A stretch of DNA of 53,150 nucleotides. Origin: a virus (Duplodnaviria; Heunggongvirae; Uroviricota; Caudoviricetes). Of the stretch, positions 1-53,150 are shown piece after piece. A program made the position numbers and the translations under genes. The notes under the pieces are model-generated. The model did not search any database and had not been told where the DNA came from. It worked only from the letters and a program-made list of their open reading frames with translations. Positions within the stretch are counted from its first letter, which is position 1; each line of letters opens with the position of its first letter. The stretch lies in the IMG/VR virus record IMGVR_UViG_2537562195_000010; one strand, given 5' to 3'.

Positions 1-1131
1 TCAAATGACCAGTTTTTTCCACTCTTTACCGCGTACATCGTTGTAAATATCGGTCATTTTTTGATTCGAATGACCCAGCAAAATTTGGGTATCAATTCCC
101 TGCTCCCTGAACAATCGCTCTGATAAAGATCTCTGCTCATGGAAAGAGGGTGGAGTGCCATTAGCGCGCCAGTTGTAATCCACAGAATCCCGGGCTTTTT
201 TAAATGCAACTGTCAACGTTGCTGGCTTAACCATCCCGCCGCGCTTAGCTGTCCCTTTAGCATGATGGTGGTGCAATAACCACGGACTAAGAACGCAATC
301 GCGACAGGATGACACTACATCATCCAGGGTGAGATTTAATTTATCGCAACGCAGAGCCAGAGGGATGGCAATCCGGGTTCCTGTTTTTTGCTGTTCGACA
401 TGAAGATAACCATCCCTGATATCCGAAAATTTCATTTTGCAAATATCTGAAAGGCGCTGGCCTGTCATCAGCGCCAGCAGCATACCACGTTGTAAAAAGT
501 AACCATCCTTTTCCGCTGCATTATAAATCATCATCCACTCATCAAAGGTCAGTCGTTGCCGTGATATCCGTACCTGTGGTTTTTTTGCCGATTCTGCAGG
601 GTTAAAGCCTGGCGAGACATCGCCCGTTTGCTGGGCCTCCCGGAAAACATCAATCAGTACTTTCCTGAAAATTTGTCCCATTCTGTTATGTCCTTTTGCC
701 TTGTAATCTTCCAGCACCGATACCACATCTTTTACGGTTATGGCATCTAATGGTCTGGTACCAAAACGTTCATCAAATACCCTGAGAGGGGATGCTTTCT
801 GTTTCAGTGTGTTGAGTTTGATCTCTCCGTTTTCATATCTTTCCTGTTGAATTTTTCGGTAACTATTCAGAAAAACAGAAACGGTTGATGAACCACCGGT
901 ATCACGAATAATTTTCTCCTGCAGAGTGAGCATTTGTTCCATTTGTTGCCTGGCAAGACGGCTGTTCGCTTCTGCTGCAATAGCTTCTGCCTGTTTCTGG
1001 TCAATACTGCCGAGCCCGTGATTTTTTCCTGTTATGGGATGCCTGTAACGCCAGTAAACTTTGTTATTTCTTTTGTCAAAATACGGAGATAATCCCGGAA
1101 CTTCAGTTTTATATTTTCGTGGGCGCGCCAT
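1..1131 (-). CDS. int: Tyrosine-type site-specific integrase (phage integrase)
   Basis: 376 aa ORF; stop codon at window positions 1-3; C-terminal catalytic-domain motifs typical of lambda-family integrases (R...HxxR...Y region, 'LLGHSNQKMTDIY'); overlaps the excisionase start by 23 nt as in lambdoid int-xis operons. Confidence 0.9.
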   Translation of the reverse strand: MARPRKYKTEVPGLSPYFDKRNNKVYWRYRHPITGKNHGLGSIDQKQAEAIAAEANSRLARQQMEQMLTLQEKIIRDTGGSSTVSVFLNSYRKIQQERYENGEIKLNTLKQKASPLRVFDERFGTRPLDAITVKDVVSVLEDYKAKGHNRMGQIFRKVLIDVFREAQQTGDVSPGFNPAESAKKPQVRISRQRLTFDEWMMIYNAAEKDGYFLQRGMLLALMTGQRLSDICKMKFSDIRDGYLHVEQQKTGTRIAIPLALRCDKLNLTLDDVVSSCRDCVLSPWLLHHHHAKGTAKRGGMVKPATLTVAFKKARDSVDYNWRANGTPPSFHEQRSLSERLFREQGIDTQILLGHSNQKMTDIYNDVRGKEWKKLVI

Positions 1132-1357
1132 CTTCCAGTATCCTCTTCAAAGCAGGGTGATCTGTGGCGATCACTTCCGGCTTGTTTACCATTCCGACAA
1201 AGCGAGCTCGAGGATCCACTCGCCAGTGTCTTCCAACTTTTTTGGGGAGAGGAAATATCATTCCGGCTTTAGCGTATTTACTTAACGTGCCCGGAGTCGG
1301 GACCGGGTCACTGAATTCCTCTTTTGCCCACTCAGTGAGAAGAATAAGTCTTGCCAT
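1109..1357 (-). CDS. xis: Excisionase (Xis-like DNA-binding protein)
   Basis: 82 aa ORF immediately upstream of and overlapping int; small basic protein 'MARLILLTEWAKEEF...' of the prophage excisionase type. Confidence 0.75.
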   Translation of the reverse strand: MARLILLTEWAKEEFSDPVPTPGTLSKYAKAGMIFPLPKKVGRHWRVDPRARFVGMVNKPEVIATDHPALKRILEDGAPTKI

Positions 1358-1421
1358 GAGAGTTGTTCGCTAATCATGGTCGCCGCCACTATAGCTTGCG
1401 GGCGACGACCGGGGTTGAACA

Positions 1422-3893
1422 TTAAAAATCAGCCTGACTCGGGAGCAGTTTTTGCCAGATGGCTGAAACGTATTTTGCCTGGTAACGCGCATCGTGCAGC
1501 GCGTTATGGCGTTCACCTTCGAATGGAATAGTCGTTCTTGCGTCGAAATCCATCACCAGTCCCAGAGCAACCATCGTTCTTACATCGCGATCATTGGTGT
1601 AACGCCACGGGCAGGGGATCTCCTGCCGTTCATATGAACGGCGTAAAATCACGTTGTCGAAAGTTGCACCGTTACCCCAGACCTGAACAAAAAATTCACC
1701 GGAGTTTTCGTCGATAAATTCCCGGAATTGCAGCAGTGCATCATCCAACGGGATTTCATCGGTCAGAATGGCGGATTGTGCTTCGCGTGACTGTTTCAGC
1801 CACCACTTAATGGTGTCCCGATCGATGACCCCGCCTGCGGTTTCCAGATCGATAGTTTTGCTGAATTCTGGCCCCATCTCTCCGGTTGCCGGATCAAAAA
1901 ACTTACCGGCTATAGCGTTTATTGGCGCATCAGGATTTTTTCCCATTGTTTCAAGGTCAATCATCAGATGGTGCCACAACCTGCTGGTGGATGTGATTTC
2001 ATGATGACCGTTCACTTTAATTAAGGGATTTGCTGTTTCGCCAGTTTTATTATCGCTGGCGTGATACTGATCGCTGACAGTGTTCTCCTTGTGCAGATGT
2101 TCAGTGCCTTCCATTTCCTCCGGATCATTTTCCTGAGCTTCAGCCTGATTCTCTTCATCGAATGTTTCCTGGTAGGTTGCGTTCCCCATCACCGCACCAC
2201 AGTCAGGACAGTTGCCGCCACCGGTCTGACCGCATGCGGTGCAAACTTTTTCCAGTTCCTGTTGCACTGCTGGTTCTGGTTGTTGTTCTTCTGGCCCGTT
2301 TTGTTGCGTATCCGGGCTGTTTTGTTCCGCTTCTGGCTCATTTTGTTTCTCGTTGGGCTGATTCTGGTCCTCAGCGTCGCGACTCTGGATCCCTTTCACC
2401 CATTTCGGATCATCCGGGTCGCTAATCCCTTCAACAAATTCACCACGTGATGCAGCAAGCAATTTATCGGCGTCAGGCTGGCTGATATTGGCTGCCTGCA
2501 TAATTTTGTTTACTTCGTCAGCGGTAACTTTTACCGGCTCTGGTTGTTCTGAATCTTCTGCGGTATCTGTATTTTGCTGTAAGCCCGTATATGTGCCATT
2601 TTTTCGGGCAAAATATTCTTCTTTTGAGATTTCGGTACCACCGGCAGCCAGCGCCTTGTCCAGGCCAGAAAGTTTGTTTGCCCTGCCGTATTTTTCCCCG
2701 TCCTTATCGGTAAAGACGAAATAAAACGGTCCTTCACGCTCTACAGATGGTTCAGCTTCCACCAGGATTTCATTTTTTTGAGAATTGGATTCCGCCGTCT
2801 CCACTGGATCAGTTTGTGCTGCTGACGACAGGATAGCATCAGCAGAGCTCTGGTCTGTTTCTTCATGTTCAAACACGCCCTTTGTCGTCAGGTATTCGCT
2901 GATGTATTTGTTCAGTGCAACGGGATCTTTGTGAATGTCGATCGGGCGCTCACGAACAAGGCCGAAAATAGTCTGACGGTCATAGCGAAGCGCATCAGGC
3001 TGTTTGCGCATTGATGCTGAGATACGCTTCCAGTCTTCGCGATCCTTGTCGATAACCTCATTTTTAGCCCAGCGATGGATGGTACCGTCAATGTTTCCTG
3101 CATCCACATCCCCGGGCCAGAGGGCGCAGGCCAGTTCTTTATCCAGTGTTTTCCATGTCTGCCTGTATTCGCGACGAATGGCTGTAGTGACAGGGTTGAT
3201 TTTTGCTGCTGAGTTTTCGGTGAGGTGCTGGTTAACTCTGGTGCGTGCGAGATCAACAACAGACGTATATTTTCCGGTTTTCTTGCGTTCACCTTCGCGA
3301 CGTTTTTTCCAGATGCGCATCTCTGCCTGAATTTCTGGCCATTTGGCACCAGGCTTACATTTATGCTTAACCCACCCGATGGCATGCAGTTTAATCTCCG
3401 GATACATGGCGTTAACTTCTGGCATTTTCATCAACGCTTCAACGATATGTCCGTTGAAGGTTGCCATGTCTTCCTGCAACAATTCCTGTGCGCTAATCAC
3501 CATATCAACGGTGATGTTTTCACATGTGTCGAACTTAACCATGACAGCGTTCTGTACTTCAGGGGACAGCTTGTCAAAAGTGACATTCATCGGATCTGAT
3601 TCAGTCTCAACCGGGACAAAGGAAGCAGACTCCTCATCCCAGCGGTTTTCCAGCATATATTCAGCATCCCAGGAGTCGAGGGCTGGGCGGGGTGTACCGG
3701 GTTTATCCTCACAGACAAGAAATTTATAAGCGCAGTCCTGAGCAGCCGGATAATGTTCAAGGAATTGCCAGTGAAATTTTGCGCGGGCGCGACGTTCATC
3801 ACCGGCTTCAATGGCTGTGGCCACAGCAACAGCGCCCTCGTTTTTTATTGCCTGTTCGTCAGGAATGGCGGCGCAAATAAATATTTTACTCAT
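1422..3893 (-). CDS. Phage exonuclease, large form, with C-terminal DnaQ-like 3'-5' exonuclease (DEDDh) domain
   Basis: 823 aa ORF; C-terminal region has 'DLETMG', 'GNGATFD' and 'HNALHDARY' motifs consistent with a DEDDh exonuclease; central Q/E/P-rich acidic low-complexity linker; position equals the exo/recE slot of lambdoid early-left operons. Confidence 0.7.
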   Translation of the reverse strand: MSKIFICAAIPDEQAIKNEGAVAVATAIEAGDERRARAKFHWQFLEHYPAAQDCAYKFLVCEDKPGTPRPALDSWDAEYMLENRWDEESASFVPVETESDPMNVTFDKLSPEVQNAVMVKFDTCENITVDMVISAQELLQEDMATFNGHIVEALMKMPEVNAMYPEIKLHAIGWVKHKCKPGAKWPEIQAEMRIWKKRREGERKKTGKYTSVVDLARTRVNQHLTENSAAKINPVTTAIRREYRQTWKTLDKELACALWPGDVDAGNIDGTIHRWAKNEVIDKDREDWKRISASMRKQPDALRYDRQTIFGLVRERPIDIHKDPVALNKYISEYLTTKGVFEHEETDQSSADAILSSAAQTDPVETAESNSQKNEILVEAEPSVEREGPFYFVFTDKDGEKYGRANKLSGLDKALAAGGTEISKEEYFARKNGTYTGLQQNTDTAEDSEQPEPVKVTADEVNKIMQAANISQPDADKLLAASRGEFVEGISDPDDPKWVKGIQSRDAEDQNQPNEKQNEPEAEQNSPDTQQNGPEEQQPEPAVQQELEKVCTACGQTGGGNCPDCGAVMGNATYQETFDEENQAEAQENDPEEMEGTEHLHKENTVSDQYHASDNKTGETANPLIKVNGHHEITSTSRLWHHLMIDLETMGKNPDAPINAIAGKFFDPATGEMGPEFSKTIDLETAGGVIDRDTIKWWLKQSREAQSAILTDEIPLDDALLQFREFIDENSGEFFVQVWGNGATFDNVILRRSYERQEIPCPWRYTNDRDVRTMVALGLVMDFDARTTIPFEGERHNALHDARYQAKYVSAIWQKLLPSQADF

Positions 3894-16145: not shown

Positions 16146-16318
16146 AATTTCCTGAGTAATAAAGATTTTACTGCCCGGCATTGAGCGGCTTTTTTATGCC
16201 AGAAAAATGGTGCAGTACATAAAATGTGCAGGTGGTTATTAATACCGGTCTTTCAGCTTGCTGGCTTTTTTGACAAGAGTTATTGGTGTGTCACGTTAAC
16301 CGGAAAAGGGAAAAAGAC

Positions 16319-16667: not shown

Positions 16668-17726
16668 ATGTTTAATACTGTAAAAATATCCAGTTGTGAG
16701 TTAATCAACGCCGACTGCCTGGAATTTATCCGGTCGTTACCCGAAAATTCTGTTGACCTGATAGTCACGGACCCGCCGTACTTTAAAGTGAAGCCTGAGG
16801 GCTGGGATAACCAGTGGACGGGTGATGAGGATTACCTGAAATGGCTGGACCAGTGTCTGGCGCAGTTCTGGCGGGTGCTGAAACCTGCCGGAAGTCTTTA
16901 CCTGTTCCGTGGCCATCGCCTGGCGTCTGACATTGAAATCATGATGCGTGAACGCTTCAGTGTGCTGAACCATATTATCTGGGCGAAGCCGTCCGGACGC
17001 TGGAACGGGTGCAACAAGGAAAGCCTGAGGGCGTATTTCCCCGCCACAGAGCGCATTCTGTTCGCGGAACACTATCAGGGGCCGTATCGCCCGAAAGATG
17101 ATGGCTATGAGGCGAAGGGCAGGGCACTGAAACAGCATGTGATGGCTCCGCTGATTGCTTACTTTCGTGATGCGCGTGCTGCCCTGGGGATAACGGCAAA
17201 ACAGATAGTGGATGCCACAGGAAAGAAAAACATGGTGTCGCACTGGTTCAGTGCCAGTCAGTGGCAGCTACCGAACGAAAGCGATTATCTGAAATTACAG
17301 GCGCTGTTTGCCCGGGTGGCAGAAGAGAAGCATCAGCGGGGTGAACTGGAAAAGCCCCACCACCAGCTGCTGGAGACGTATACTTCACTGAACCGGCAGT
17401 ATGCGGAACTGCAGAGTGAATATAAGCATCTGCGGCGGTATTTTGGCGTGACGGCGCAGGTGCCGTACACGGATGTGTGGACGCATAAACCGGTGCAGTA
17501 CTATCCCGGGAAACATCCGTGCGAAAAACCGGCAGAAATGCTGCAGCAGATAATCAGTGCGAGCAGTCGTCCGGGTGACCTGGTTGCAGATTTCTTCATG
17601 GGGTCGGGTTCGACAGTCAAAGCCGCGATGGCGCTGGGGCGTCGTGCAACTGGCGTTGAGCTGGAGACTGAACGTTTTGAGCAGACGGTCAGGGAAGTAC
17701 AGGATTTAGTCAGTCAGAATGGATGA
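16668..17726 (+). CDS. DNA methyltransferase (beta-class N6-adenine/N4-cytosine, DPPY motif)
   Basis: 352 aa; motif IV 'DLIVTDPPY' near the N-terminus and motif I 'DFFMGSGST' near the C-terminus (beta-class order); no adjacent restriction endonuclease, so likely an orphan phage methylase. Confidence 0.85.
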   Translation: MFNTVKISSCELINADCLEFIRSLPENSVDLIVTDPPYFKVKPEGWDNQWTGDEDYLKWLDQCLAQFWRVLKPAGSLYLFRGHRLASDIEIMMRERFSVLNHIIWAKPSGRWNGCNKESLRAYFPATERILFAEHYQGPYRPKDDGYEAKGRALKQHVMAPLIAYFRDARAALGITAKQIVDATGKKNMVSHWFSASQWQLPNESDYLKLQALFARVAEEKHQRGELEKPHHQLLETYTSLNRQYAELQSEYKHLRRYFGVTAQVPYTDVWTHKPVQYYPGKHPCEKPAEMLQQIISASSRPGDLVADFFMGSGSTVKAAMALGRRATGVELETERFEQTVREVQDLVSQNG

Positions 17727-17766: not shown

Positions 17767-17842
17767 GGCCCTTTAGCTCAGTGGTGAGAGCGAGCGACTC
17801 ATAATCGCCAGGTCGCTGGTTCAAATCCAGCAAGGGCCACCA
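17767..17842 (+). tRNA. tRNA with CAU anticodon (Met or lysidine-modified Ile2)
   Basis: Hand-folded cloverleaf: acceptor GGCCCTT/AAGGGCC, D-arm GCTC...GAGC, anticodon loop CTCATAA, T-arm GCTGG-TTCAAAT-CCAGC, encoded CCA. Confidence 0.85.
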
Positions 17843-17850
17843 TATCCATA

Positions 17851-17927
17851 CCGCCATTAGCTCATCGGGATAGAGCGCCAGCCTTCGAAGCTGGCTGCGC
17901 GGGGTTCGAGTCCTCGATGGCGGTCCA
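17851..17927 (+). tRNA. tRNA-Arg (anticodon UCG)
   Basis: Hand-folded cloverleaf: acceptor CCGCCAT/ATGGCGG, anticodon stem CCAGC/GCTGG with loop CTTCGAA, T-loop TTCGAGT, encoded CCA. Confidence 0.85.
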
Positions 17928-18700: not shown

Positions 18701-18950
18701 GTGTTAAATCCCTCACAATTCAGTAAGTTGACAGTTGCCTGTCAGACTGAGCATTTGTTAAAAAAATTTCGCATGGTGAATCCCCCTGTGCGGAGGGGCG
18801 ACTGGTGAACGGTATGATCTCTTTGATGATCGTAAGCGAGAATACGCGGGTTTGGTGTCACCGGGCTGAACTCACCGGGAGGCACCCGGCACCATGCTCA
18901 TGGTGATACAGAAATGCGGCTTCAGCCCCTCTCCGGAGGGGCTTTCTTAT
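18701..18950 (+). repeat. Structured repeat unit A (family of five; possible sRNA gene or promoter-terminator cassette)
   Basis: Contains the conserved blocks 'GTTAAATCCCTCACA', 'TTGTTAAAAAAA', hairpin 'GGTGAATCCCCCTGTGCGGAGGGGC', hairpin 'CACCGGGAGGCACCCGGCACC' and terminator 'GCCCCTC-TCCG-GAGGGGC-TTTCTT' (18925-18948). Confidence 0.7.
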
Positions 18951-19110
18951 GGACAAAAAAAGCCCGCGCTGGGAGACGCGGGCGGCAAGGAATAAACAAT
19001 AAAACGTGAAGTAATACTTCAACTGGCGAATAATACCCGACAGTAATCACTCTGCGCAATAGCGTGGCCTTTTTCGAATTGCGGGCTGTAGTCTCCCTTC
19101 TGCTGGGTGT

Positions 19111-19266
19111 CCTGGTTGCAGATTTCTTCATGGGGTAGGGTTCGGCAGTTAAAGCAGCGATGGCGCTGGGGCGTCGTGCAACTGGCGTTGAGCTGGATAC
19201 CGGGCGTTTTGAACAGACTGCGCAGGAAATCAGGGATGTATTTAGCGGGAGCGGTTTGCAGAAGTA
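19111..19266 (+). pseudogene. Remnant of a DNA methyltransferase 3' end (duplicate of the C-terminus of the 16668..17726 gene)
   Basis: Near-identical to 17578-17726 ('CCTGGTTGCAGATTTCTTCATGGGG...GGCGTCGTGCAACTGGCGTTGAGCTGGA...') but with an in-frame TAG ('FFMG*') and no upstream gene body. Confidence 0.6.
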
Positions 19267-19330
19267 ATCTCCCAAAATGCCATTTTTGGAATATACTGGT
19301 ATTAAGTCTTTTTGCTAAGGTTAATTCAAA

Positions 19331-20056
19331 ATGGATGTTGCCTGCTCTGTGGTCCTGATTCGCTATCCGATAGATATTTTTCTTGAAAAAGAAAAAGTTT
19401 CACTCGATGCCGGAAGTGTTATGCTTGTTGCCAGAAATATAAGAGGGCTTTTCTGTGCTTATGCCGACAGAGTGAAAATGGCAGATATAAGTAACAGCGT
19501 CGTCAATCAGTATCTGGAAAGGGAGTGTGAACTGACGGAGTATACACCGACAAAAATTCCTCTTTATTTGATGTCTGATATTTACAATACGGAACTGGCG
19601 GAGGCTTTAATAACCCAGCATAGTGAATCCAGTGATACTTTGAAGGATTTCTCTGTTATAACCGCATTTTCATGTATCTCCTTATTTGCAACAGACAGAC
19701 GTCTGCCATTATTTTTGTCCGGTGCTGTAAATAATATCAGCTGTAAAGTAAGGGCTATAATTCAGACCGACATATCGGCAGGCTGGATGCTTGGTGTGAT
19801 TGCATTACAATTGCATATGAGCGAAAGCTTGTTGAAGCGAAAACTTAAGGATGAAGGTTATAGCTTTAGTCGGTTGTTGCTGGAGGAGCGAATGCGTGTT
19901 GCTGTTAATCTTGTATGTTTCCAGCGAGAGTGTGGACAAGCGATAGCGGAAAAATGTGGTTACTCAAGTAAGTCCTACTTCATTTCTGTATTTCACCAGT
20001 ATTATGGTGCACCACCTGAGAGCTATGCATATTTGCAGAAAGCAGACGTTATCTGA
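19331..20056 (+). CDS. AraC/XylS-family transcriptional regulator (prophage-encoded)
   Basis: 241 aa; C-terminal double-HTH region '...LHMSESLLKRKLKDEGYSFSRLLLEERMRVAVNLV...IAEKCGYSSKSYFISVFHQYYGAPP' typical of AraC-type regulators; AT-rich island. Confidence 0.75.
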   Translation: MDVACSVVLIRYPIDIFLEKEKVSLDAGSVMLVARNIRGLFCAYADRVKMADISNSVVNQYLERECELTEYTPTKIPLYLMSDIYNTELAEALITQHSESSDTLKDFSVITAFSCISLFATDRRLPLFLSGAVNNISCKVRAIIQTDISAGWMLGVIALQLHMSESLLKRKLKDEGYSFSRLLLEERMRVAVNLVCFQRECGQAIAEKCGYSSKSYFISVFHQYYGAPPESYAYLQKADVI

Positions 20057-20144
20057 TGTTTTTCATCAGGCATATATTGATTGACTGTATTAGATATAGT
20101 CTGAATGTGTTCAGCATAAAAAGTTATAATCATTTGGTGTTTGC

Positions 20145-20423
20145 GTGAATATTGATGAGAAAATCAGATGTAGCCAACTGTTACAGCGTATTGAAGCCGT
20201 CAATGTGGAACGAACAAAGGTCTTCAGTCGTCTGACAGTTTTATTTTGTACCCCTGATCGACGTTCAGGTCAGGAGATGGTTCTTCTGGATGTAGATGCA
20301 CTTCGGAACGTCTGTGAGGAGTTCACCGCGGCTAATTCGGAGTTACTGAGTCTTGTTCAGGAGTACAACAGAATTGCAGGTAGTAACGGTTTTGATGAAA
20401 TCAAAATTATATCCCGTGGATAA
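20145..20423 (+). CDS. Hypothetical protein downstream of the AraC-family regulator
   Basis: 92 aa ORF with GTG start; AT-rich; no family recognised. Confidence 0.4.
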   Translation: MNIDEKIRCSQLLQRIEAVNVERTKVFSRLTVLFCTPDRRSGQEMVLLDVDALRNVCEEFTAANSELLSLVQEYNRIAGSNGFDEIKIISRG

Positions 20424-20671
20424 AACATATCCTGTATATTTATGTTGTTACATACAGGCGCTTTTAGTATCTGCCGCACGGCAGTTGTACTTCAGAATAA
20501 GATGCTTTTGTGACTGGTGGTGTTGTATCTGGGGTTAGCCAGGAGGCAGGTTCAGAGAGTCCGGTGGTAATTATGTGTATGCAGTGGTTGTTGCTGTACC
20601 GTGGGCAAGTTCTGGAACTGGCTTCGTCCATTGTAGATGATTGTTAGCTGGATATCAGTTACCTCATGGAA

Positions 20672-20907
20672 ATGTTAAATGACTCACAATTCGGTTGATG
20701 GGCTATTGTCTGATCGATGGAAGTCTTGTAAAAACGAGCCAGCATAGTGAATCCCCCTGTGCGGAGGGGCGTCTGACATGGTCTCCATAGCGATGGTCAC
20801 AATACGCAGATTCAGTAGTCAGGCTGAATCTACCGGGAGGCACCCGGCACTATGCTGCTTATGGTGTATACATAGCGATCGGCCCCTCTCCGGAGGGGCT
20901 TTTTTTG
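20672..20907 (+). repeat. Structured repeat unit B
   Basis: Same conserved blocks as unit A ('GTTAAATGACTCACA', 'AGTGAATCCCCCTGTGCGGAGGGGC', 'TACCGGGAGGCACCCGGCAC', terminator 'GGCCCCTCTCCGGAGGGGCTTTTTTT'). Confidence 0.7.
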
Positions 20908-20929
20908 TGCGGGAAAAGGCTGTGTTGTT

Positions 20930-21175
20930 AAGTGTTAAATTCCTCACAGTTCAGATGGTTGATGCTTGCCTGTCTGAGGGGGAGTTGTTAAAAAAGTTCT
21001 GCATGGTGAATCCCCCTGTGCGGAGGGGCGACTGGTATGATTTGCATCTTTTCTGTTGTAGGCAATGCAAACGCGGGTTCAGGGACACCAGACTGGACTC
21101 ACCGGGAGGCACCCGGCACCATGTTCATGATGATACAGATACGCAGTGTCAGCCCCTCTCCTGAGGGGCTTTTTT
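20930..21175 (+). repeat. Structured repeat unit C
   Basis: Same conserved blocks; terminator 'AGCCCCTCTCCTGAGGGGCTTTTTT' at 21151-21175; variable central segment. Confidence 0.7.
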
Positions 21176-21202
21176 ATGCAGGAAAAACGCTGTGTTGTGA
21201 AA

Positions 21203-21436
21203 TGTTAAATTCCTCACAGTTCAGATGGTTGATGCTTGCCTGTCTTACGGGGAGTTGTTAAAAAAGTTCTGCATGGTGAATCCCCCTGAGCGGAGGGGCA
21301 TATCAGCGCAGGTGTTTCTACTCTATCCTTTCTGTGCGGGTTCAGGTGCTGATACTGAACTCACCGGGAGGCACCCGGCATCATGCATATGGTTAACAGA
21401 CAAGTAGCGAAGCCCCTCTCCGGAGGGGCTTTTTTA
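21203..21436 (+). repeat. Structured repeat unit D
   Basis: Same conserved blocks; terminator at 21411-21436. Confidence 0.7.
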
Positions 21437-21462
21437 TGCAGGGAAAAGGCTGTGTTGTGAAA

Positions 21463-21690
21463 TGTTAAATTCCTCACAATTCATGAGGTTGATGATTGTC
21501 TGATTGATGAGGAGTTTGTTAAAAAAAACGGGCATGGTGAATCCCCCTGTGCGGAGGGGTGATATCGTATCATTTCCTGTGTGGCCGACTGATATCACGG
21601 ACATTTGTTCACCGGGAGGCACCCGGCACCATGCAGTATACAGAGATTAGGCATACATCCAGGCTCCTCATCGCAGGAGCCTTTTTACAT
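21463..21690 (+). repeat. Structured repeat unit E
   Basis: Same conserved 5' blocks; central segment forms its own inverted repeat ('GTGATATCG...CGACTGATATCAC'); different terminator hairpin 'GGCTCCT-CATCGC-AGGAGCC-TTTTTA'. Confidence 0.65.
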
Positions 21691-21918
21691 GTAAAAAAAA
21701 CCGCTCCTGGGAAGAGCGGTTGGCAAGGAAGCAAGGAATAAATAACAAAACGTGAAGTAATTTATTCAGCACCCTAATAATACCTTAGAGTAATCACCTT
21801 GCGCAACTGTAAGGGCGTATTTCTTTTTTGCGGGCTGTTTTTCTGTGTGACTTTTGTGTTTCCGGAGGTCAGCCCGTGCCTTCTCTGACTCAGAACATTA
21901 TCCCGGCCGGGAGGATTC

Positions 21919-34494: not shown

Positions 34495-34716
34495 ATGGCA
34501 AAGATCCGATATCTGCAGGGCACGCATGATGCCCGGGCCGGGGATATCCGTGATGTGGCACAGCCGTGTGCGGAGGTGCTGGTTCGCCTGGGAAAGGCGG
34601 AGTACATCACGGTGCGACGTCCGGCAGGTCAGAAAAAGAAACGTGATGCGGAGCATGGCGAATGTGGAACCTTTTACGGCGAACCCGAAAAAACCAGAAA
34701 TCAGGACGTGACGTAA
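34495..34716 (+). CDS. Small hypothetical protein (weak call)
   Basis: 73 aa ORF 'MAKIRYLQGTHDARAGDIRDVAQPCAEVLVRLGKAEYITVRR...' between capsid and portal; weak RBS. Confidence 0.3.
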   Translation: MAKIRYLQGTHDARAGDIRDVAQPCAEVLVRLGKAEYITVRRPAGQKKKRDAEHGECGTFYGEPEKTRNQDVT

Positions 34717-45191: not shown

Positions 45192-45215
45192 GGGGCGCGG
45201 TTGCGCCCCTTTTTT
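45192..45215 (+). terminator. Rho-independent terminator after the porin moron
   Basis: 'GGGGCGC-GGTT-GCGCCCC' followed by TTTTTT, 12 nt upstream of the L start. Confidence 0.6.
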
Positions 45216-45227
45216 ATGGGCGGATAT

Positions 45228-45926
45228 ATGCAGGATATTCACGAAGAAAGCCTGAACGAGTCGGTTAAGTCAGAGCAGTCACCGCGGGTGGTGCTCTGGG
45301 AAATCGACCTGACGGTGCAGGGCGGTGAGCGGTATTTTTTCTGCAATGAGCTGAATGAAAAAGGGGGGCCGGTGACCTGGCAGGGGCGTGAATATCAGGC
45401 GTACCCGATTGAGGGCAGCGGCTTTGAGATGAACGGAAAGGGCAGCAGTGCCCGCCCGTCGCTGACGGTGTCCAATCTGTTTGGCCTTGTCACCGGGATG
45501 GCGGAGGATTTGCAGAGCCTGGTGGGTGCCACGGTGGTCCGCCGCCGGGTGTATGCGCGTTTTCTGGATGCGGTGAACTTTGTGGCAGGCAATCCTGAGG
45601 CAGACCCGGAGCAGGAGCTGACGGACCGCTGGGTGGTGGAGCAGATGTCAGCGCTGACGACCATGACGGCCTCGTTTGTGCTGGCGACACCGACGGAGAC
45701 GGACGGTGCGCTGTTTCCCGGTCGCATCATGCTGGCGAACACCTGTATGTGGGATTACCGGGGCGATGAATGCGGGTATAACGGTCCGGCAGTGGCGGAT
45801 GAGTTCGACAACCCCACCACGGATATCCGGAAGGACAGATGCAGTAAATGCATGCGCGGGTGTGAGATGCGCGGCATGGTGGCTAATTTCGGCGGTTTCC
45901 TTTCCATTAATAAACTTTCGCAGTAA
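45228..45926 (+). CDS. Minor tail protein L
   Basis: 232 aa from 'MQDIHEESLNESVKSEQSPRVVLWEIDLT...GGFLSINKLSQ', matching lambda gpL by eye; the ORF-track start at 45186 lies inside the terminator. Confidence 0.9.
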   Translation: MQDIHEESLNESVKSEQSPRVVLWEIDLTVQGGERYFFCNELNEKGGPVTWQGREYQAYPIEGSGFEMNGKGSSARPSLTVSNLFGLVTGMAEDLQSLVGATVVRRRVYARFLDAVNFVAGNPEADPEQELTDRWVVEQMSALTTMTASFVLATPTETDGALFPGRIMLANTCMWDYRGDECGYNGPAVADEFDNPTTDIRKDRCSKCMRGCEMRGMVANFGGFLSINKLSQ

Positions 45927-45936
45927 ATCCCGTTTT

Positions 45937-46682
45937 ATGACACAGACTGAATCAGCGATTCTGGCGCATGCCCGGCGGTGTGCGCCAGCGGAGTCGTGCG
46001 GCTTCGTGATAAGCACCCCGGAGGGCGAACGGTACCAGCCCTGCGTGAATATCTCTGCAGAGCCGGAGGCGTATTTTCGTATTGCACCGGAAGACTGGCT
46101 GCAGGCACAGATGCAGGGGGAGGAGTTGTGGCGCTGGTCCACAGTCATCCCGGTGGTCTGCCCTGGCTGAGCGAGGCGGACCGGCGGCTGCAGATAAAGA
46201 GTGCCCTGCCCTGGTGGCTGGTCTGTCGGGGTGAAATTCACCGGTTCCGCTGTGTGCCGCACCTGACCGGACGGCGCTTTGAACACGGTGTGACGGACTG
46301 TTACACCCTGTTCCGGGATGCATACCATCTGGCGGGGATAACGCTGCCGGATTTTCATCGCGAGGATGACTGGTGGCGCAACGGCCAGAACCTGTACCTG
46401 GACAATATGGAGGCCACTGGCTTTTGCCGGGTGTCCCTGTCCTCTGCACAGGCAGGCGATATCCTGCTGTGCTGCTTTGGTTCATCGGTGCCGAATCATG
46501 CCGCCATTTACTGTGGCAACGGTGAGCTGCTTCACCATATACCTGAACAACTGAGTAAACGGGAGAGGTATTCTGAAAAATGGCAACGACGAACGCATTC
46601 TGTCTGGCGTCACCGCCACTGGTCCGCATCTGCCTTCACGGGGATTTACAACGATTTGGTCGCCGCATCAGTCTGTATGTGA
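45937..46682 (+). pseudogene. Tail assembly protein K (JAB/MPN plus NlpC/P60), apparently frameshifted
   Basis: N-terminal part 'MTQTESAILAHARRCAPAESCGFVISTPEGERY...' is in one frame and stops at 46170; the JAMM motif 'VALVHSHPGGLPWLSEAD' and NlpC/P60 part continue in another frame to 46682; the switch maps to a G5 run at 46116-46120. Confidence 0.65.
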
Positions 46683-47224
46683 ACACGGCAGCGGAGGCCA
46701 TCCGTGCCCTGTCGCAGCAGGTGCCGGGATTCCGCTGTCAGATGAACGAAGGCTGGTACCAGATACGTATTGCCGGTGAGGATACCGCGCCGGACCAGAT
46801 ATCGCCCCGACTGCATGAGCCACTGAACCCGGGGGATGTCATTCATCTGGTTCCCCGGGCAGAAGGTGCCAAAAGTGGCGGAGTGTTTCAGGCCGTGCTT
46901 GGCGTTGCGCTGGTTGCGGCAGCTATCTGGATGCCGGGTATCGGTATTGCAGCCAGCAACATCATGTTTTCCATGGGCTCTGCAATGGCACTGGGTGGTG
47001 TGGCCCAGATGCTGGCCCCGAAGGCAAAGACGCCGGAGTACAAAAGCACGGATAACGGCAGACAGAACACGTATTTTTCGTCACTGGACAACATGATTGC
47101 TCAGGGGAATCCGGTGCCGGTGCCTTACGGTGAAATGCTGGTTGGTTCACGACGGATATCCCAGGACATCAGCACCCGTGATGAGGGCGGTGACGGGAAA
47201 GTGGTGGTTATCGGGCGGGGATGA
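46580..47224 (+). CDS. Tail assembly protein I
   Basis: 214 aa; 'ARICLHGDLQRFGRRISLYVNTAAEAIRALSQQVPGFR...KNTYFSSLDNMIAQGNPVPVPYGEM' matches lambda gpI by eye; overlaps the K 3' end as in lambda. Confidence 0.85.
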   Translation: MATTNAFCLASPPLVRICLHGDLQRFGRRISLYVNTAAEAIRALSQQVPGFRCQMNEGWYQIRIAGEDTAPDQISPRLHEPLNPGDVIHLVPRAEGAKSGGVFQAVLGVALVAAAIWMPGIGIAASNIMFSMGSAMALGGVAQMLAPKAKTPEYKSTDNGRQNTYFSSLDNMIAQGNPVPVPYGEMLVGSRRISQDISTRDEGGDGKVVVIGRG

Positions 47225-48060
47225 AAAAAAATCCCGCAGTGTTCGGCGCCTGCGGGAAGAGATACGAAGATTAACTTTAAGGAATTTTTCATTATTCTGG
47301 CAGATGAACTGTAACGCAGCGTGATTATGAGCACTACAGTCAGTGTGCGGAAATGTGAATAAACTCAGAATTTTTATTCACCGGAAGAGGATTGCCGGAT
47401 ATCGGTGGCAGAGGACAGAAGGCATCATGCCGGGTTCAGGGGATAAAAAAATCCCGCAGAACTCCGTGCTGCGGGAAGAGAACGATGTTGACTAACCTGT
47501 TGGCGTTTTATTTTTATTGACCCGCAGAAACTGTAACCTGCCGGAATGCACTCTGCCACGGAGAATGACGGAAAATGTGAAGAAAATCAGAGTTTTTATT
47601 TATCCCGTGCATTCGTCTCTGGCGACAGAGTGGCGTCAGTAATGTCCGTGATACTGAGGGGGGAATTAAAAAATCTCCCGTAATACACCTGGATATTGAC
47701 GGGAGAAACGAATAGTCACCTTAAGGAGTAGTTTTGATTATTGCCTGTAATCAGCGGGCGAATTGTAACGTATGGTGATTATGAGTGCCACAGGTAATTT
47801 GCAGAAATGTGAATAAATTCAGAATTTTTATTCACAGGAAGGGGCTGCGGGATATTGGTGGCAGAGGACAGAAAATATCAGGCCGGGTTTAAGGGATAAA
47901 AAAATCCCGCAGAGTTAGCGGAGCTGCGGGAAATAAACGATGAAGATTAACGTTATGGAGTTATTTTTCAGGCATCAAAAAAGTAACGCAGCGTCATTAT
48001 TGCGGCTACAGGCAATTTGCAGAAATGTGAAGAATTTCAGAAATTTTATTCCGTCATGAC
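47224..48060. repeat. Four tandem ~225-bp repeat units in the I-J intergenic region
   Basis: Each unit has an A-run plus GC hairpin ('AAAAAAATCCCGCAG-N8-10-CTGCGGGAA', a minus-strand terminator-like structure; 47224-47256, 47444-47477, 47664-47705, 47898-47932), a conserved 'GTAACGCAGCGT(G/C)ATTAT' block and an AT-rich inverted repeat 'GTGAATAAA-N9-TTTATTCAC'. Confidence 0.75.
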
Positions 48061-48061
48061 A

Positions 48062-48091
48062 CAGGCACCCTCCGGGGTGCCTGTTGTTTTT
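48062..48091 (+). terminator. Rho-independent terminator just upstream of J
   Basis: 'CAGGCACCC-TCCG-GGGTGCCTG' followed by TTGTTTTT. Confidence 0.5.
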
Positions 48092-48134
48092 GGGCATAAA
48101 CAGATTCAGACATCAGACAGGAGAGGGGGACAGA

Positions 48135-51100
48135 GTGGGTAAAGGGGGCGGCAAGGGGCACACACCGCGTGAGGCGAAGGACAATCTCAAATCCACGCAG
48201 ATGATGAGCGTGATTGATGCCATCGGTGAGGGACCGGTGGAAGGCCCGGTGAAGGGACTGCAGAGTATTCTGGTGAACAAAACCCCGCTGACGGACACGG
48301 ACGGTAATCCCGTGATACACGGTGTGACCGCCGTCTGGCGTGCCGGGGAGCAGGAGCAGACACCGCCGGAAGGCTTTGAGTCCTCCGGGGCGGAAACCGC
48401 ACTGGGTGTGGAGGTGACGAAGGCAAAGCCGGTGACGCGCACCATCACGTCAGCGAACATTGACCGTCTGCGGGTCACCTTCGGGGTGCAGTCACTGGTG
48501 GAGACCAGCTCAAAGGGTGACCGTAATCCCTCTTCTGTCCGGCTGCTGATTCAGCTTGAGCGTAACGGTAACTGGGGGACGGAGAAGGATGTCACCATTA
48601 ACGGCAAGACCACCTCGCAGTACCTGACGTCGGTGATTCTGAATAATCTCCCTGAGCGCCCCTTTAACATCCGGATGGTCAGGGTGACGGCGGACAGTAC
48701 CACGGACCAGCTGCAGAACAGAACGCTGTGGTCGTCATACACCGAAATCATCGATGTGAAACAGTGCTACCCGAACACGGCCATTGTGGGGCTGCAGGTG
48801 GATGCGGAGCAGTTCGGTGGCCAGCAGATGGTGGTGAACTACCATATCCGCGGCCGCATCATTTAGGTGCCGTCAAACTATGACCCGGAAAAACGCACCT
48901 ACAGCGGTATCTGGGACGGGAGTCTGAAACCGGCATACAGCAATAACCCGGCCTGGTGCCTGTGGGACATGCTGACCCACCCGCGCTACGGCATGGGAAA
49001 ACGCCTGGGGGCGGCGGATGTGGACAAGTGGGCACTGTATGCCATCGGGCAGTACTGTGACCAGACGGTCCCGGATGGTTTCGGGGGCACAGAGCCGCGG
49101 ATGACTTTCAATGCGTACCTGTCACAGCAGCGTAAGGTCTGGGATGTCCTGGGGGATTTCTGCTCGGCGATGCGCTGTATGCCGGTATGGAACGGCCAGA
49201 CGCTGACGTTCGTTCAGGACCGTCCGTCGGATGTGGTGTGGCCGTACACCAACAGCGATGTGGTGGTGGATGATAACGGCGTGGGGTTCCGCTACAGCTT
49301 CAGTGCCCTGAAGGACCGGCACACGGCGGTGGAGGTGAATTACACCGACCCGCAGAACGGCTGGCAGACTTCCACGGAACTGGTGGAAGACCCGGACGCC
49401 ATCCTGCGCTACGGGCGCAACCTGCTGAAGATGGACGCGTTCGGCTGTACCAGCCGCGGTCAGGCTCACCGTGCCGGACTGTGGGTGATAAAGACCGAAC
49501 TGCTGGAAACGCAGACGGTGGATTTCACGCTCGGGTCTCAGGGGCTGCGGCACACGCCCGGTGACATCATTGAAATCTGTGATAACGACTATGCCGGGAC
49601 CCTGACCGGCGGACGCATCCTGTCCATCGATGCCGCCAGCCGCACACTGACGCTGGACCGTGAGGTGACACTGCCGGAGACAGGTACATCGACGGTGAAC
49701 CTGATTAACGGCAGCGGTAAGCCGGTGCGCGTGGACATCACTGCACACCCCGCCCCTGACCGGATACAGGTCAGCATTCTGCCTGATGGCGTGGCGACAT
49801 ACGGTGTGTGGGGACTCTCCCTGCCGTCACTGCGTCGTCGCCTGTTCCGCTGTGTTTCCATCCGGGAAAACACGGACGGCACCTTTGCCATCACGGCGGT
49901 GCAGCATGTGCCGGAAAAAGAAGCCATTGTGGATAACGGGGCCCGCTTTGAGCCGATGTCCGGCTCACTGAACAGCGTCATCCCGCCGGCAGTGCAGCAC
50001 CTCACGGTGGAGGTGAGTGCCTCAGACGGCCAGTATCTGGCGCTGGCGAAATGGGACACGCCGCGGGTGGTGAAGGGCGTGCGCTTCAGTCTGCGCCTGA
50101 CCAGTGGCAGTGGTGAGAACAGTCGCCTGGTGACCAGCGCCATCACGGCGGACACGGAGTACCGTTTCAGTGGCCTGCCGCTCGGGGAATACACCCTGAC
50201 GGTCAGGGCGATAAACAGCTACGGCCAGCGGGGCGAACCTGCCACCACCACATTCCGGATTAATGCACCGGCGGCACCGGCCAGCATTGAACTGACGCCG
50301 GGCTATTTTCAGATAACGGCAGTACCGGTGCTGGCAGTGTATGACCCGACGGTACAGTATGAATTCTGGTTCTCAGAAAAACGCATCACGGACACGGCAC
50401 AGGTGGAAACCTCTGCCCGTTATCTGGGTACCGGCAGCCAGTGGAGCGTCTCCGGCCCGCACATTAAGCCGGGGAAGGATTTCTGGTTTTATGTGCGCAG
50501 CGTCAACCTGGTGGGGAAATCTGCGTTTGTGGAGGCCAGCGGGCAGGCCAGCAATGATGGTGAAGGGTATCTGGAAATTTTCCGTGGGCTGATAGATGAG
50601 GCGCTGCTGGGGAAGGCACTGAAAGAGCGTATTGATGCGTCAGCCCTGCGTACTGAGGTCACGCAACTGGAAGAAGACATCCGCCAGCGACTGGAGACGG
50701 ATGTTGCGGAAGTGACCCGAAAAATCGGGGAGGCGGAAAACAGCCTCACGCAGCTGGTTGCGAAAAAGAATGAGGACCAGACGCTGGCCATCGCGCAGGT
50801 GAGTCAGCAGGTGGACCGGGTGAGCAGTGAAATCACACAGACCGTCAGCCAGAGCACGGAGGAAAACGCCAGGCAGATAGCGCAGGTCCGCCAGTACGTG
50901 GATGACAAAGGGAGTGAAATCACCTCGACCACGGATAAAAAGCTGGAAGACCAGAGCGCCACCATACAGCAGATACAGCGGGTGCAGACAGACACAAATA
51001 ACGACCTGGCTGCACTGTACATGCTGAAGGTGCAGAAAACAAAAAACGGCATTCCGTATGTTGCCGGTATTGGTGCGGGGATTGAGGATGCTGATGGCCA

Positions 51101-51821
51101 GCCCCTGAGCAATATACTGCTGCAGGCGGACCGTATCGCGATGATTAACCCGGAGAACGGCAACACCACGCCGCTGTTTGTGGCGCAGGGGAATCAGCTG
51201 TTTATGAACGACGTGTTCCTGAAGCGACTGTTTGCAGTGAGCATCACCTCGTCCGGCAATCCCCCGACGTTCTCCCTGACGCCGGAGGGCAGGCTGACGG
51301 CCCGCAATGCGGACATCAGCGGACATATCAGTGCGAACTCGGGCACGCTGAATAATGTCGTGATAGCGGAGAACTGCACGATAAATGGCACGCTGAAAGC
51401 GGAGAACATTATTGGTGATCTTGTGAAATGTGCCGGGGTGGCTTTTCCGGTGGATGGTAGTTACCTTGCGAACGGTACACGAACGCTGACGGTGTATGAC
51501 GATCACAGCTTTGACCGGCAGATTATAATCCCGCCGATAATCTATGTCGGGTCAAAACAGGAATCCCGCACCAGTAATGACATCTGGACAGAGTGCTTCC
51601 TGCATGTTGATCAGAATGGACGCCGGATTTATTCAGGCAGGTCAGTGGAAGAGCCGGGAATTTTCAGCGGGATCATCGATATGCCAGCTGGCGGTGGTCA
51701 TATCACCCTGAGTTTTACCGTGAGCTCACGGCGTCAGAATAACAGTTGGGGCAGTTCACGAATCAGTAACCTTCAGGCGATAGTGGTGAAGAAAAACAGC
51801 GCGGGGATCAGCATCCGCTGA
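48135..51821 (+). pseudogene. Tail tip / host-specificity protein J with an in-frame amber (TAG) codon
   Basis: GTG start at 48135 ('VGKGGGKGHTPREAKDNLKSTQ...'); single reading frame from 48135 to 51821 interrupted only by TAG at 48864-48866 ('RGRII*VPSNYDP'; lambda J has Gln at the equivalent position as I recall); C-terminal receptor-binding region intact. Confidence 0.8.
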
Positions 51822-52019
51822 ACATCGCGCCCCGGGATTGCCGGAAGGAGACAAAAACCGTACAGTATGCGCGGGTGCCTTTGGCTGATGGCCGGAGGGA
51901 ACACCTGAAGGCCGGATGTGAAAAGGCCCCGGACAAAACATTCATGTTTAACCCGAGGCCTGACCATTCATCCTAAGCAAGTGAAAGGTTAGCGCCTCTC
52001 CGTAAAAGGAGCAAGCGTT

Positions 52020-52160
52020 ATGTCGCAAAAACCGTTAAAAACCACCGTGATTTGTATCACGGTAGTGCTCATTATCTGGATCACCCACAGTTCACTGTGC
52101 GAGTTCCGGTTCCGGATAGCGGGCGCGGAGATTGCGGCGTTCTTACAGTGTAAGCGGTAA
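52020..52160 (+). CDS. hok: Hok/Gef-family type I toxin
   Basis: 46 aa 'MSQKPLKTTVICITVVLIIWITHSSLCEFRFRIAGAEIAAFLQCKR'; TM helix plus 'SLCE(I/F)R.R....E(I/V)AAF' Hok signature; AAGGAG RBS; structured GC-rich 5' and 3' flanks as in hok/sok loci. Not in the ORF track (<60 aa). Confidence 0.7.
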   Translation: MSQKPLKTTVICITVVLIIWITHSSLCEFRFRIAGAEIAAFLQCKR

Positions 52161-52260
52161 GAAACCGTGGCGGGGGAGTGTACCTTCCCCGCCGACCGGT
52201 TGCTGAGGGTGATCAGCCGGATGGCACCTTTTTAACATCAATAAATCACAAATTTTACCG

Positions 52261-52290
52261 CAGGCCGGGAAACCGGTCCTGCGGTTTTTT
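52261..52290 (+). terminator. Rho-independent terminator after the hok-like gene
   Basis: 'CCGCAGGCCGGG-AAA-CCGGTCCTGCGG' followed by TTTTTTT. Confidence 0.5.
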
Positions 52291-52304
52291 TATGGAGGAA
52301 ATCC

Positions 52305-53150
52305 ATGGCAGTCAGAATATCGGGTGTGCTGAAGGACGGGGCCGGTAAGCCGGTACCGGGATGCACGATAGAGCTGAAAGCGCGCCGCACAACGGAGACG
52401 GTGATTGTCACCACGGTGGCGTATGGTCAGCCGGGGGAAACCGGCAGTTACAGTATGGATGTTGAGCCGGGGTTGTACCGGGTGACGCTGAACACGGAAG
52501 GGTACGCGCCGTCATATGTGGGTGACATTCTGGTGAAGGCTGACTCAGCACCGGGAACGCTGAATAAATTTCTGATGGACCTGGAGGACGCACAGTATTA
52601 CCCGAAAGCCCTTGCAGAGCTGGAAGCGGTGGCCGCGGAAATCCTGAAACGTGCGGAAGCGTCAGCGGCGAGTGCAGAGGAAGCGAAGAAACGGGCAGAG
52701 AATGCGCGGGGACCGAAGGGGGATAAGGGAGACACGGGGCCACAGGGTATTCCCGGGCCAAAAGGCGATACCGGCGAGCGGGGGCCAAAGGGTGAGCGTG
52801 GTGAGGCAGGCCCACAGGGGGTACAGGGGCCGCGGGGTGAAAACGGCCCCGTGGGACCGCAAGGAGTGCCGGGTATTCAGGGGCCTGCTGGTCCTGCGGG
52901 CCCGCGAGGTGAAACCGGAGCCAGAGGCGAAAAAGGAGAGCCGGGAGATCCCGGAGGACCTCCGGGACCAAAAGGTGACACTGGCCCCAGAGGGGAGCCG
53001 GGGCCTCAGGGCCCGGCAGGTCCGAGGGGACCTGCCGGAGAGAGAGGGCCGCAAGGATTGCAGGGTGTGGCAGGGGAGAGAGGCGATACAGGTCCGGCTG
53101 GTCCACAGGGTATACCTGGACCTCCGGGACCAACAGGTAGCGTCGGTCCT
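52305..53150 (+). CDS. Side tail fibre protein (Stf-like) with collagen-like Gly-X-Y repeats; 3' end outside window
   Basis: ATG at 52305 with GGAGG RBS; '[28 protein letters not shown]...' parallels the lambda Stf N-terminus; from ~52720 a long (G-X-Y)n run '[37 protein letters not shown]...'; open to the window end, which is why it is absent from the ORF track. Confidence 0.8.

Follow-up and report, generated by a model that had tools for sequence, protein, structure and literature searches.

In phage lambda, gene J is the start point of tail assembly and encodes the receptor binder, and gene K is essential for tail assembly. Suppressor-sensitive (sus, or amber) J mutants of lambda are known from Campbell-type collections; they were selected in the laboratory and grown on suppressor hosts. 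The lambda gpJ protein (PDB 8iyk and related entries) is an uninterrupted chain of 1,132 residues and forms trimers, with 15 chains across 5 PDB entries. Among natural prophages, Asadulghani et al. (2009; PMC2669165) described defective lambdoid prophages of E. coli O157 Sakai that carry morphogenesis lesions and are complemented in trans, and the same work indicates that lambdoid prophages of E. coli often have defects in morphogenesis.

We analysed a stretch of 53,150 nucleotides (the window), which is an ompW-type lambdoid prophage of E. coli 96.154 (AEZW02000002.1, draft assembly GCA_000215245.2). The prophage is integrated, as the window lies on a 1.85-Mb (1,848,047 bp) chromosomal contig and ends within one base of the contig end. 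Its integrase gene, at positions 1-1131, is 100% identical to that of a counterpart prophage in E. coli 05-3629 which adjoins ompW; the window and that prophage are related in a mosaic fashion. The genes run in the order integrase, early region, Q, two tRNAs, lysis, terminase, head and tail genes, and the tail end continues with M, an OmpC-like porin gene, L, K, I, J, hok and a tail fibre gene. In the literature searched, no paper dealt with the accession, and strain 96.154 appears only as a natural isolate that served as the source of a CDI toxin.

It had been claimed that the J frame of this prophage is continuous for 1,228 codons except for one TAG, that the frame is for this reason reported as two ORFs, and that the protein is cut after about 243 residues. 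Our translation and the ORF table agree with this description. J comprises the following parts.

48135-48863, + strand: N-terminal fragment of J, 243 codons, annotated as EIH98506.1 'hypothetical protein EC96154_1477', with FNIII-A_GpJ as its sole domain.
48864-48866, + strand: in-frame amber codon TAG in J, CAG (Gln244) changed to TAG by a C-to-T transition at 48864.
48867-51821, + strand: remainder of J, 984 codons, annotated as EIH97960.1 'fibronectin type III protein' and treated as an ORF of its own that begins at the GTG right after the TAG.

The letters of the window around the stop are CGC GGC CGC ATC ATT TAG GTG CCG TCA AAC TAT GAC CCG, which read R G R I I * V P S N Y D P. When 48084-51821 was translated the TAG was the sole internal stop, and the ORF table shows J as two abutting ORFs, 48084-48866 and 48867-51821. 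The gene itself occupies 48135-51821, starting at a lambda-like GTG at 48135 (VGKGGGKGHTPREAKDNLK...) and ending at its natural stop at 51819-51821, so that 243 codons, the TAG and 984 codons make up the 1,228. Since there is a single stop in so long a frame, and the two pieces together align end to end with intact homologues, chance is not at issue; judged from its sequence, J is one disrupted gene and not two independent ORFs. As written in the assembly, J is a pseudogene.

To place the break within the protein we used Pfam matches on an intact relative allele that is 99% identical to the window. FNIII-A_GpJ covers residues 86-207 and Phage-tail_3 residues 330-495; these are followed by two Ig-like domains (609-816), a tail-tip fibre domain (944-1071) and a receptor-binding domain (1111-1227). 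The full gpJ family architecture (FNIII-A, Phage-tail_3, Ig_J, Ig_J_second, Phage_Tail_Tip, Ig_GpJ_C) is present, and the same Pfam families are recorded across the two fragments in the window. The synteny is also that of gpJ, with J downstream of the tape measure gene, M, L, K and I and upstream of tail-fibre genes. A phmmer comparison with lambda J (PDB 8iyk) returned E = 0, the alignment extends over residues 1-836 and 938-1227, and the order of Pfam domains is identical. The gene in the window differs from lambda gpJ in its length of 1,228 codons (about 100 additional residues separate the aligned blocks) and in that the uninterrupted frame typical of the gpJ family is broken by the TAG at codon 244. 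Truncation there leaves FNIII-A as the sole surviving domain; Phage-tail_3, the two Ig-like domains, the tail-tip fibre domain and the C-terminal receptor-binding domain all lie in the 984-codon piece. Since J nucleates tail assembly and binds the receptor, the 243-residue product should be non-functional.

We then asked which codon is ancestral. The closest complete genomes, E. coli 05-3629 and 2012C-4502, both have an intact gpJ of 1,228 amino acids, and over the first approximately 1.5 kb of J the sole difference between the window and either genome is the T for C at 48864. Position 48864 is C in 6 of the 6 intact alleles compared in full, and codon 244 is CAG in all eight intact J alleles compared. 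Codon 244 of phage lambda J is also CAG. It occupies lambda coordinates 16234-16236, which bears out the original prediction of a glutamine codon here, and Q244 of the lambda J chain in PDB 8iyk is aligned within NYHLRGRILQVPSNYNP. The residue sits in the conserved motif RGRI(L/I)QVPSNY. We also scanned IMG/VR for J homologues with a degenerate pattern over codon 244 that had N at its first base. At least 120 contigs matched, and among the matches listed 120/120 had CAG, within RGRI[L/I/F]QVPSNY. The intact alleles, lambda and these 120 listed homologues support the proposed direction of change, a nonsense mutation from CAG to TAG.

Amber hotspots are said to have been traced, by Coulondre and co-workers in 1978, to deamination of 5-methylcytosine at Dcm sites, such as CCAGG in lacI. 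The J change resembles them in being a C-to-T transition that turns CAG into TAG. However, its ancestral context, ATTCAGGTG, holds TCAGG and not CCWGG, and a Dcm-hotspot origin was rejected on this ground.

The TAG allele was not found outside this assembly. A query of 61 bases with the codon in the middle gave 0 exact matches among 1,746 matching records in 5,426 complete E. coli genomes, the best matches all being one mismatch off. An exact 41-mer with the TAG was absent from IMG/VR and from JGI metagenome contigs, and a degenerate codon-level TAG pattern was absent from IMG/VR and from 185,579 species-representative (GTDB) genomes. Among about 15 billion proteins, each J fragment is recorded from a single contig. 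The TAG allele is private to one assembly in the databases searched.

Over 45135-53150 there are eight positions at which the window differs from all six relatives (five of which are aligned at 53129): two inserted bases in K, 48864, 49776, 49778, 50123, 50230 and 53129. The changes at 49776 and 49778 (A548I in J) are common to strain 00-3076, and that at 50230 (Q699R in J) is common to RM10466, so these are not private. J does hold one further private change.

50123, + strand: second private C-to-T transition in J, synonymous at Ser663 (AGC to AGT).

A 61-bp query for the 50123 allele gave 0 exact matches in the 5,426 genomes, and a private silent change of this sort is what is expected from ordinary lineage divergence. 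At 53129 the window has G-to-A relative to the five relatives aligned there. The substitutions that are private or possibly private (48864, 50123 and 53129) are G:C-to-A:T transitions in 3 of 3 cases.

The two inserted bases lie in a second tail gene, 2.7 kb upstream of the J amber.

45937-46682, + strand: tail gene K, JAB/MPN plus NlpC/P60, 'C40 family peptidase', frameshifted (tblastn, ORF table, Pfam).
46123-46125, + strand: private 2-bp insertion in K, where the window has GAGGAGTTG and relatives have GAG-A-TTG.

The insertion was seen by aligning the window to 05-3629, and it leaves the length of the homopolymer run unchanged. By tblastn, K is split into residues 1-62 (45937-46122) and 61-247 (46119-46679), which lie in different frames. 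The native frame now meets a stop at 46168-46170 after 77 codons, 62 of them native, and the annotation of the source assembly has ORFs of 41 and 142 amino acids in place of K. A 71-bp query spanning the insertion had 0 exact matches among 600 matching E. coli records. K is a pseudogene as well.

To learn the state of the remaining genes, about 57 annotated proteins of a relative were mapped onto the window. Except for J and K, each mapped gene that has a counterpart in the window is present at full length and without an internal stop, and this set includes every head, lysis, terminase, Q, integrase and excisionase gene tested and every tail gene tested other than J and K. The few proteins of the relative that lack a full match fall in the mosaic early region. 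No TAG interruption was found in any other mapped gene of the window. Thus the prophage has inactivating lesions in two virion-essential genes, a nonsense codon in J and a frameshift in K, as defective prophages do. That the other mapped genes are intact speaks for recent inactivation and against an assembly that is error-prone in general.

We also looked at tRNA genes, and the only ones in the window according to ARAGORN and Rfam are the following.

17767-17842, + strand: tRNA gene with anticodon CAT.
17851-17927, + strand: tRNA-Arg gene with anticodon TCG.

Neither anticodon can read UAG, and no amber-suppressor tRNA was found in the window with either tool. ARAGORN calls the first gene Met (CAT) and RefSeq labels the relative's copy tRNA-Ile; presumably it encodes a lysidine-modified AUA reader like ileZ of Stx phages.

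Three origins had been offered for the amber codon: natural decay, a suppressor-dependent allele and a sequencing error. Natural decay fits best. We consider it probable that the codon is a real, recent loss-of-function mutation, private to its lineage, in a decaying prophage, and we infer the reality of the base call from the assembled sequence. Two observations count against this reading: both inactivating lesions are confined to one draft assembly, as errors would look, and both fall in tail-tip genes, which make up about 10% of the coding sequence (chance roughly 0.01, judged post hoc), which is mildly unexpected. The main rival, an error of sequencing or assembly, is unlikely though it has to be taken seriously. 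It holds that the strain really has CAG and an intact J, perhaps also an intact K, and that the T is a consensus error. That the TAG allele occurs in one draft assembly only, and that the K lesion is equally unique, would fit an error. So would the position of the lesions near a contig end (4.3 kb away for J, 7 kb for K), in a repeat-rich region with several J-like copies per genome (J-like genes occupy a median of 2-3 places per E. coli genome). However, reads mixed from intact paralogues cannot account for the T: every known allele has C at 48864, so a consensus of paralogous J copies cannot yield it. Elsewhere in the 53-kb prophage no mapped gene is broken, substitution errors in a consensus are rare at normal coverage, the K insertion is not a homopolymer-length error, and neither lesion is typical of platform error. 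The suppressor-dependent allele is the weakest of the three origins. Here a glutamine-inserting amber suppressor in the host or a helper would give full-length J and a functional phage, which we regard as highly improbable. The locus does have one nonsense codon, in an essential gene, which a suppressor could read as the native glutamine, and CAG to TAG is exactly the change that a supE/glnV-type suppressor reverts at the protein level. Purines 3' of UAG favour suppression and the base after the TAG is G, and amber suppressors were reportedly seen in some natural coliforms by Marshall and Levy in 1980. Against this, the phage encodes no suppressor tRNA in the window, no other mapped gene of the window is broken by TAG, and the allele is found in no relative, so there is no hint of its maintenance. 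The phage is also not otherwise functional. Since K is frameshifted, no nonsense suppressor could restore the phage; the idea of a glutamine-inserting suppressor thus holds for the J sequence, which it would return to wild type in principle, but not for a working phage, given the +2 frameshift in K.

Very improbable, in our judgement, is a leaky or split J that still functions, in which readthrough of UAG by tRNA-Gln or reinitiation at the adjacent GTG would allow some tail assembly. An in-frame GTG does stand immediately after the TAG, the break falls between FNIII-A and the next Pfam domain, and J acts as a trimer, so that three chains per virion suffice. Yet the GTG has no Shine-Dalgarno sequence (-1.7 kcal/mol vs -6 to -11 kcal/mol for most genuine starts in the window), no natural homologue is split at this place in all the databases searched (0 TAG, and CAG in 120/120 of the listed IMG/VR matches), and K is broken too. 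Reinitiation at the GTG was rejected, since it lacks the Shine-Dalgarno sequence and the better-supported in-frame starts are at codons 296, 323 and 346; these would remove still more of the protein. It is scarcely credible that a real amber is combined with low-level J, made through near-cognate reading of UAG-G as Gln or in two pieces by way of the GTG, so that the prophage is a throttled rather than a dead producer of tails; the K frameshift would then have to be an assembly error or be bypassed. The chance that a programmed readthrough or recoding event is conserved in this J lineage is next to nil. Nothing beyond the presence of the stop codon speaks for it, and a programmed signal should be conserved, yet CAG is present in every homologue examined. 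Since TAG occurs only in the 96.154 assembly, a conserved programmed stop is excluded.

If the mutation is real, as we favour, the C-to-T change turns Gln244 of J into an amber codon in this ompW-type prophage and translation would stop after 243 residues. The product would keep FNIII-A and lose the hub, Ig-like, fibre and receptor-binding domains. Together, the J amber and the +2 frameshift in K should block assembly of the tail tip. Upon induction the prophage would be expected to replicate, package its DNA, make heads and lyse the cell, and to yield no infectious tailed particles of its own. A co-resident lambdoid prophage that supplies tail parts would be the exception, and by analogy with other lambdoid prophages such elements could provide tail proteins to the 96.154 prophage. 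This would correspond to an early stage of prophage decay.

The comparison with the described systems can now be drawn. Like the lambda sus J mutants, the prophage has a single-base change to TAG in the essential gene J; here the affected codon is one for glutamine, and a glutamine-inserting suppressor could restore the native residue. The J amber is nothing new in kind, being the same molecular event as in a classical lambda J sus mutant. In contrast, the sus mutants are otherwise intact phages, whereas this is a prophage of a natural isolate with a frameshifted K and no evidence of a suppressor. With the O157 Sakai prophages it shares point or small lesions in morphogenesis genes and an otherwise largely intact genome. 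In O157 Sakai, related co-resident prophages can supply virion proteins in trans, as they may for the 96.154 prophage. It differs further in that it is of the ompW type, no stx was seen in the window, and there are just two lesions, both private, which places it at an earlier stage of decay.

Beyond annotation the significance of the amber codon is small. The 'hypothetical protein' and the 'fibronectin type III protein' together make up a single J pseudogene, and the 96.154 prophage should count as tail-defective in prophage surveys. With two private lesions and its other mapped genes intact, it offers a clean example of the earliest prophage decay. If the strain had an amber suppressor it would be a rare natural parallel to the laboratory sus mutants, although the frameshift in K makes it unlikely that this matters.

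Several other features of the prophage were observed. The OmpC-like porin gene (43854-45017, 387 amino acids) lies between M and L and is 100% identical to WP_000738904.1; it resembles a moron gene at an uncommon location. Directly downstream of J is a gene for a Hok/Gef family toxin (52020-52160), and no Sok was found in Rfam at the gathering threshold. The tail-fibre gene at 52305-53150 is incomplete: the assembly broke inside it, and 282 of its 422 codons precede the end of the window and contig. RefSeq labels the portal gene of the closest relative 'frameshifted' (window region 34495-37085). In the window an 807-aa ORF at 34662-37085 is overlapped there by a 73-aa ORF at 34495-34713, which may be an annotation quirk or a programmed frameshift common to this phage group. 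A DNA-methyltransferase remnant with an internal stop lies at 19118-19255; it has 74% identity to the C-terminus of an intact copy at 16668-17726, and the relative annotates a pseudogene there too. Between the tRNAs and a SASA/NanS-like esterase gene there are five copies of the STnc100 sRNA family (RF02076) at 18742-21692 on the + strand (119-172 bits), four of them in tandem at 20713-21692.

The region between I and J (47225-48134) is 911 bp long, vs 60 bp in lambda, and has no ORF of more than 75 amino acids. It consists of about four direct repeats of a unit of approximately 220 nt with the core GCAGAAATGTGAATAAATTCAGAATTTTTATT. The insert is 100% identical in 05-3629, and RefSeq relatives carry no annotation for it; 67 complete E. 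coli genomes have the array in full, and about 800 have just its last unit. No Rfam family matched the insert, and the hits were sub-threshold only, including an antisense GcvB match at 47896-48002. We could not identify the repeats with the AgvB/AsxR or Pas sRNAs, which are located in the Q-lysis region. Where the repeats end, about 40 nt before the J start codon, the + strand has a strong terminator-like hairpin of 10 pairs (7 G-C) at 48061-48094, followed by TGTTTTTGGG. The insert may hold a regulatory array or the gene for an as yet undescribed prophage sRNA, and it may be of more interest than the amber codon.
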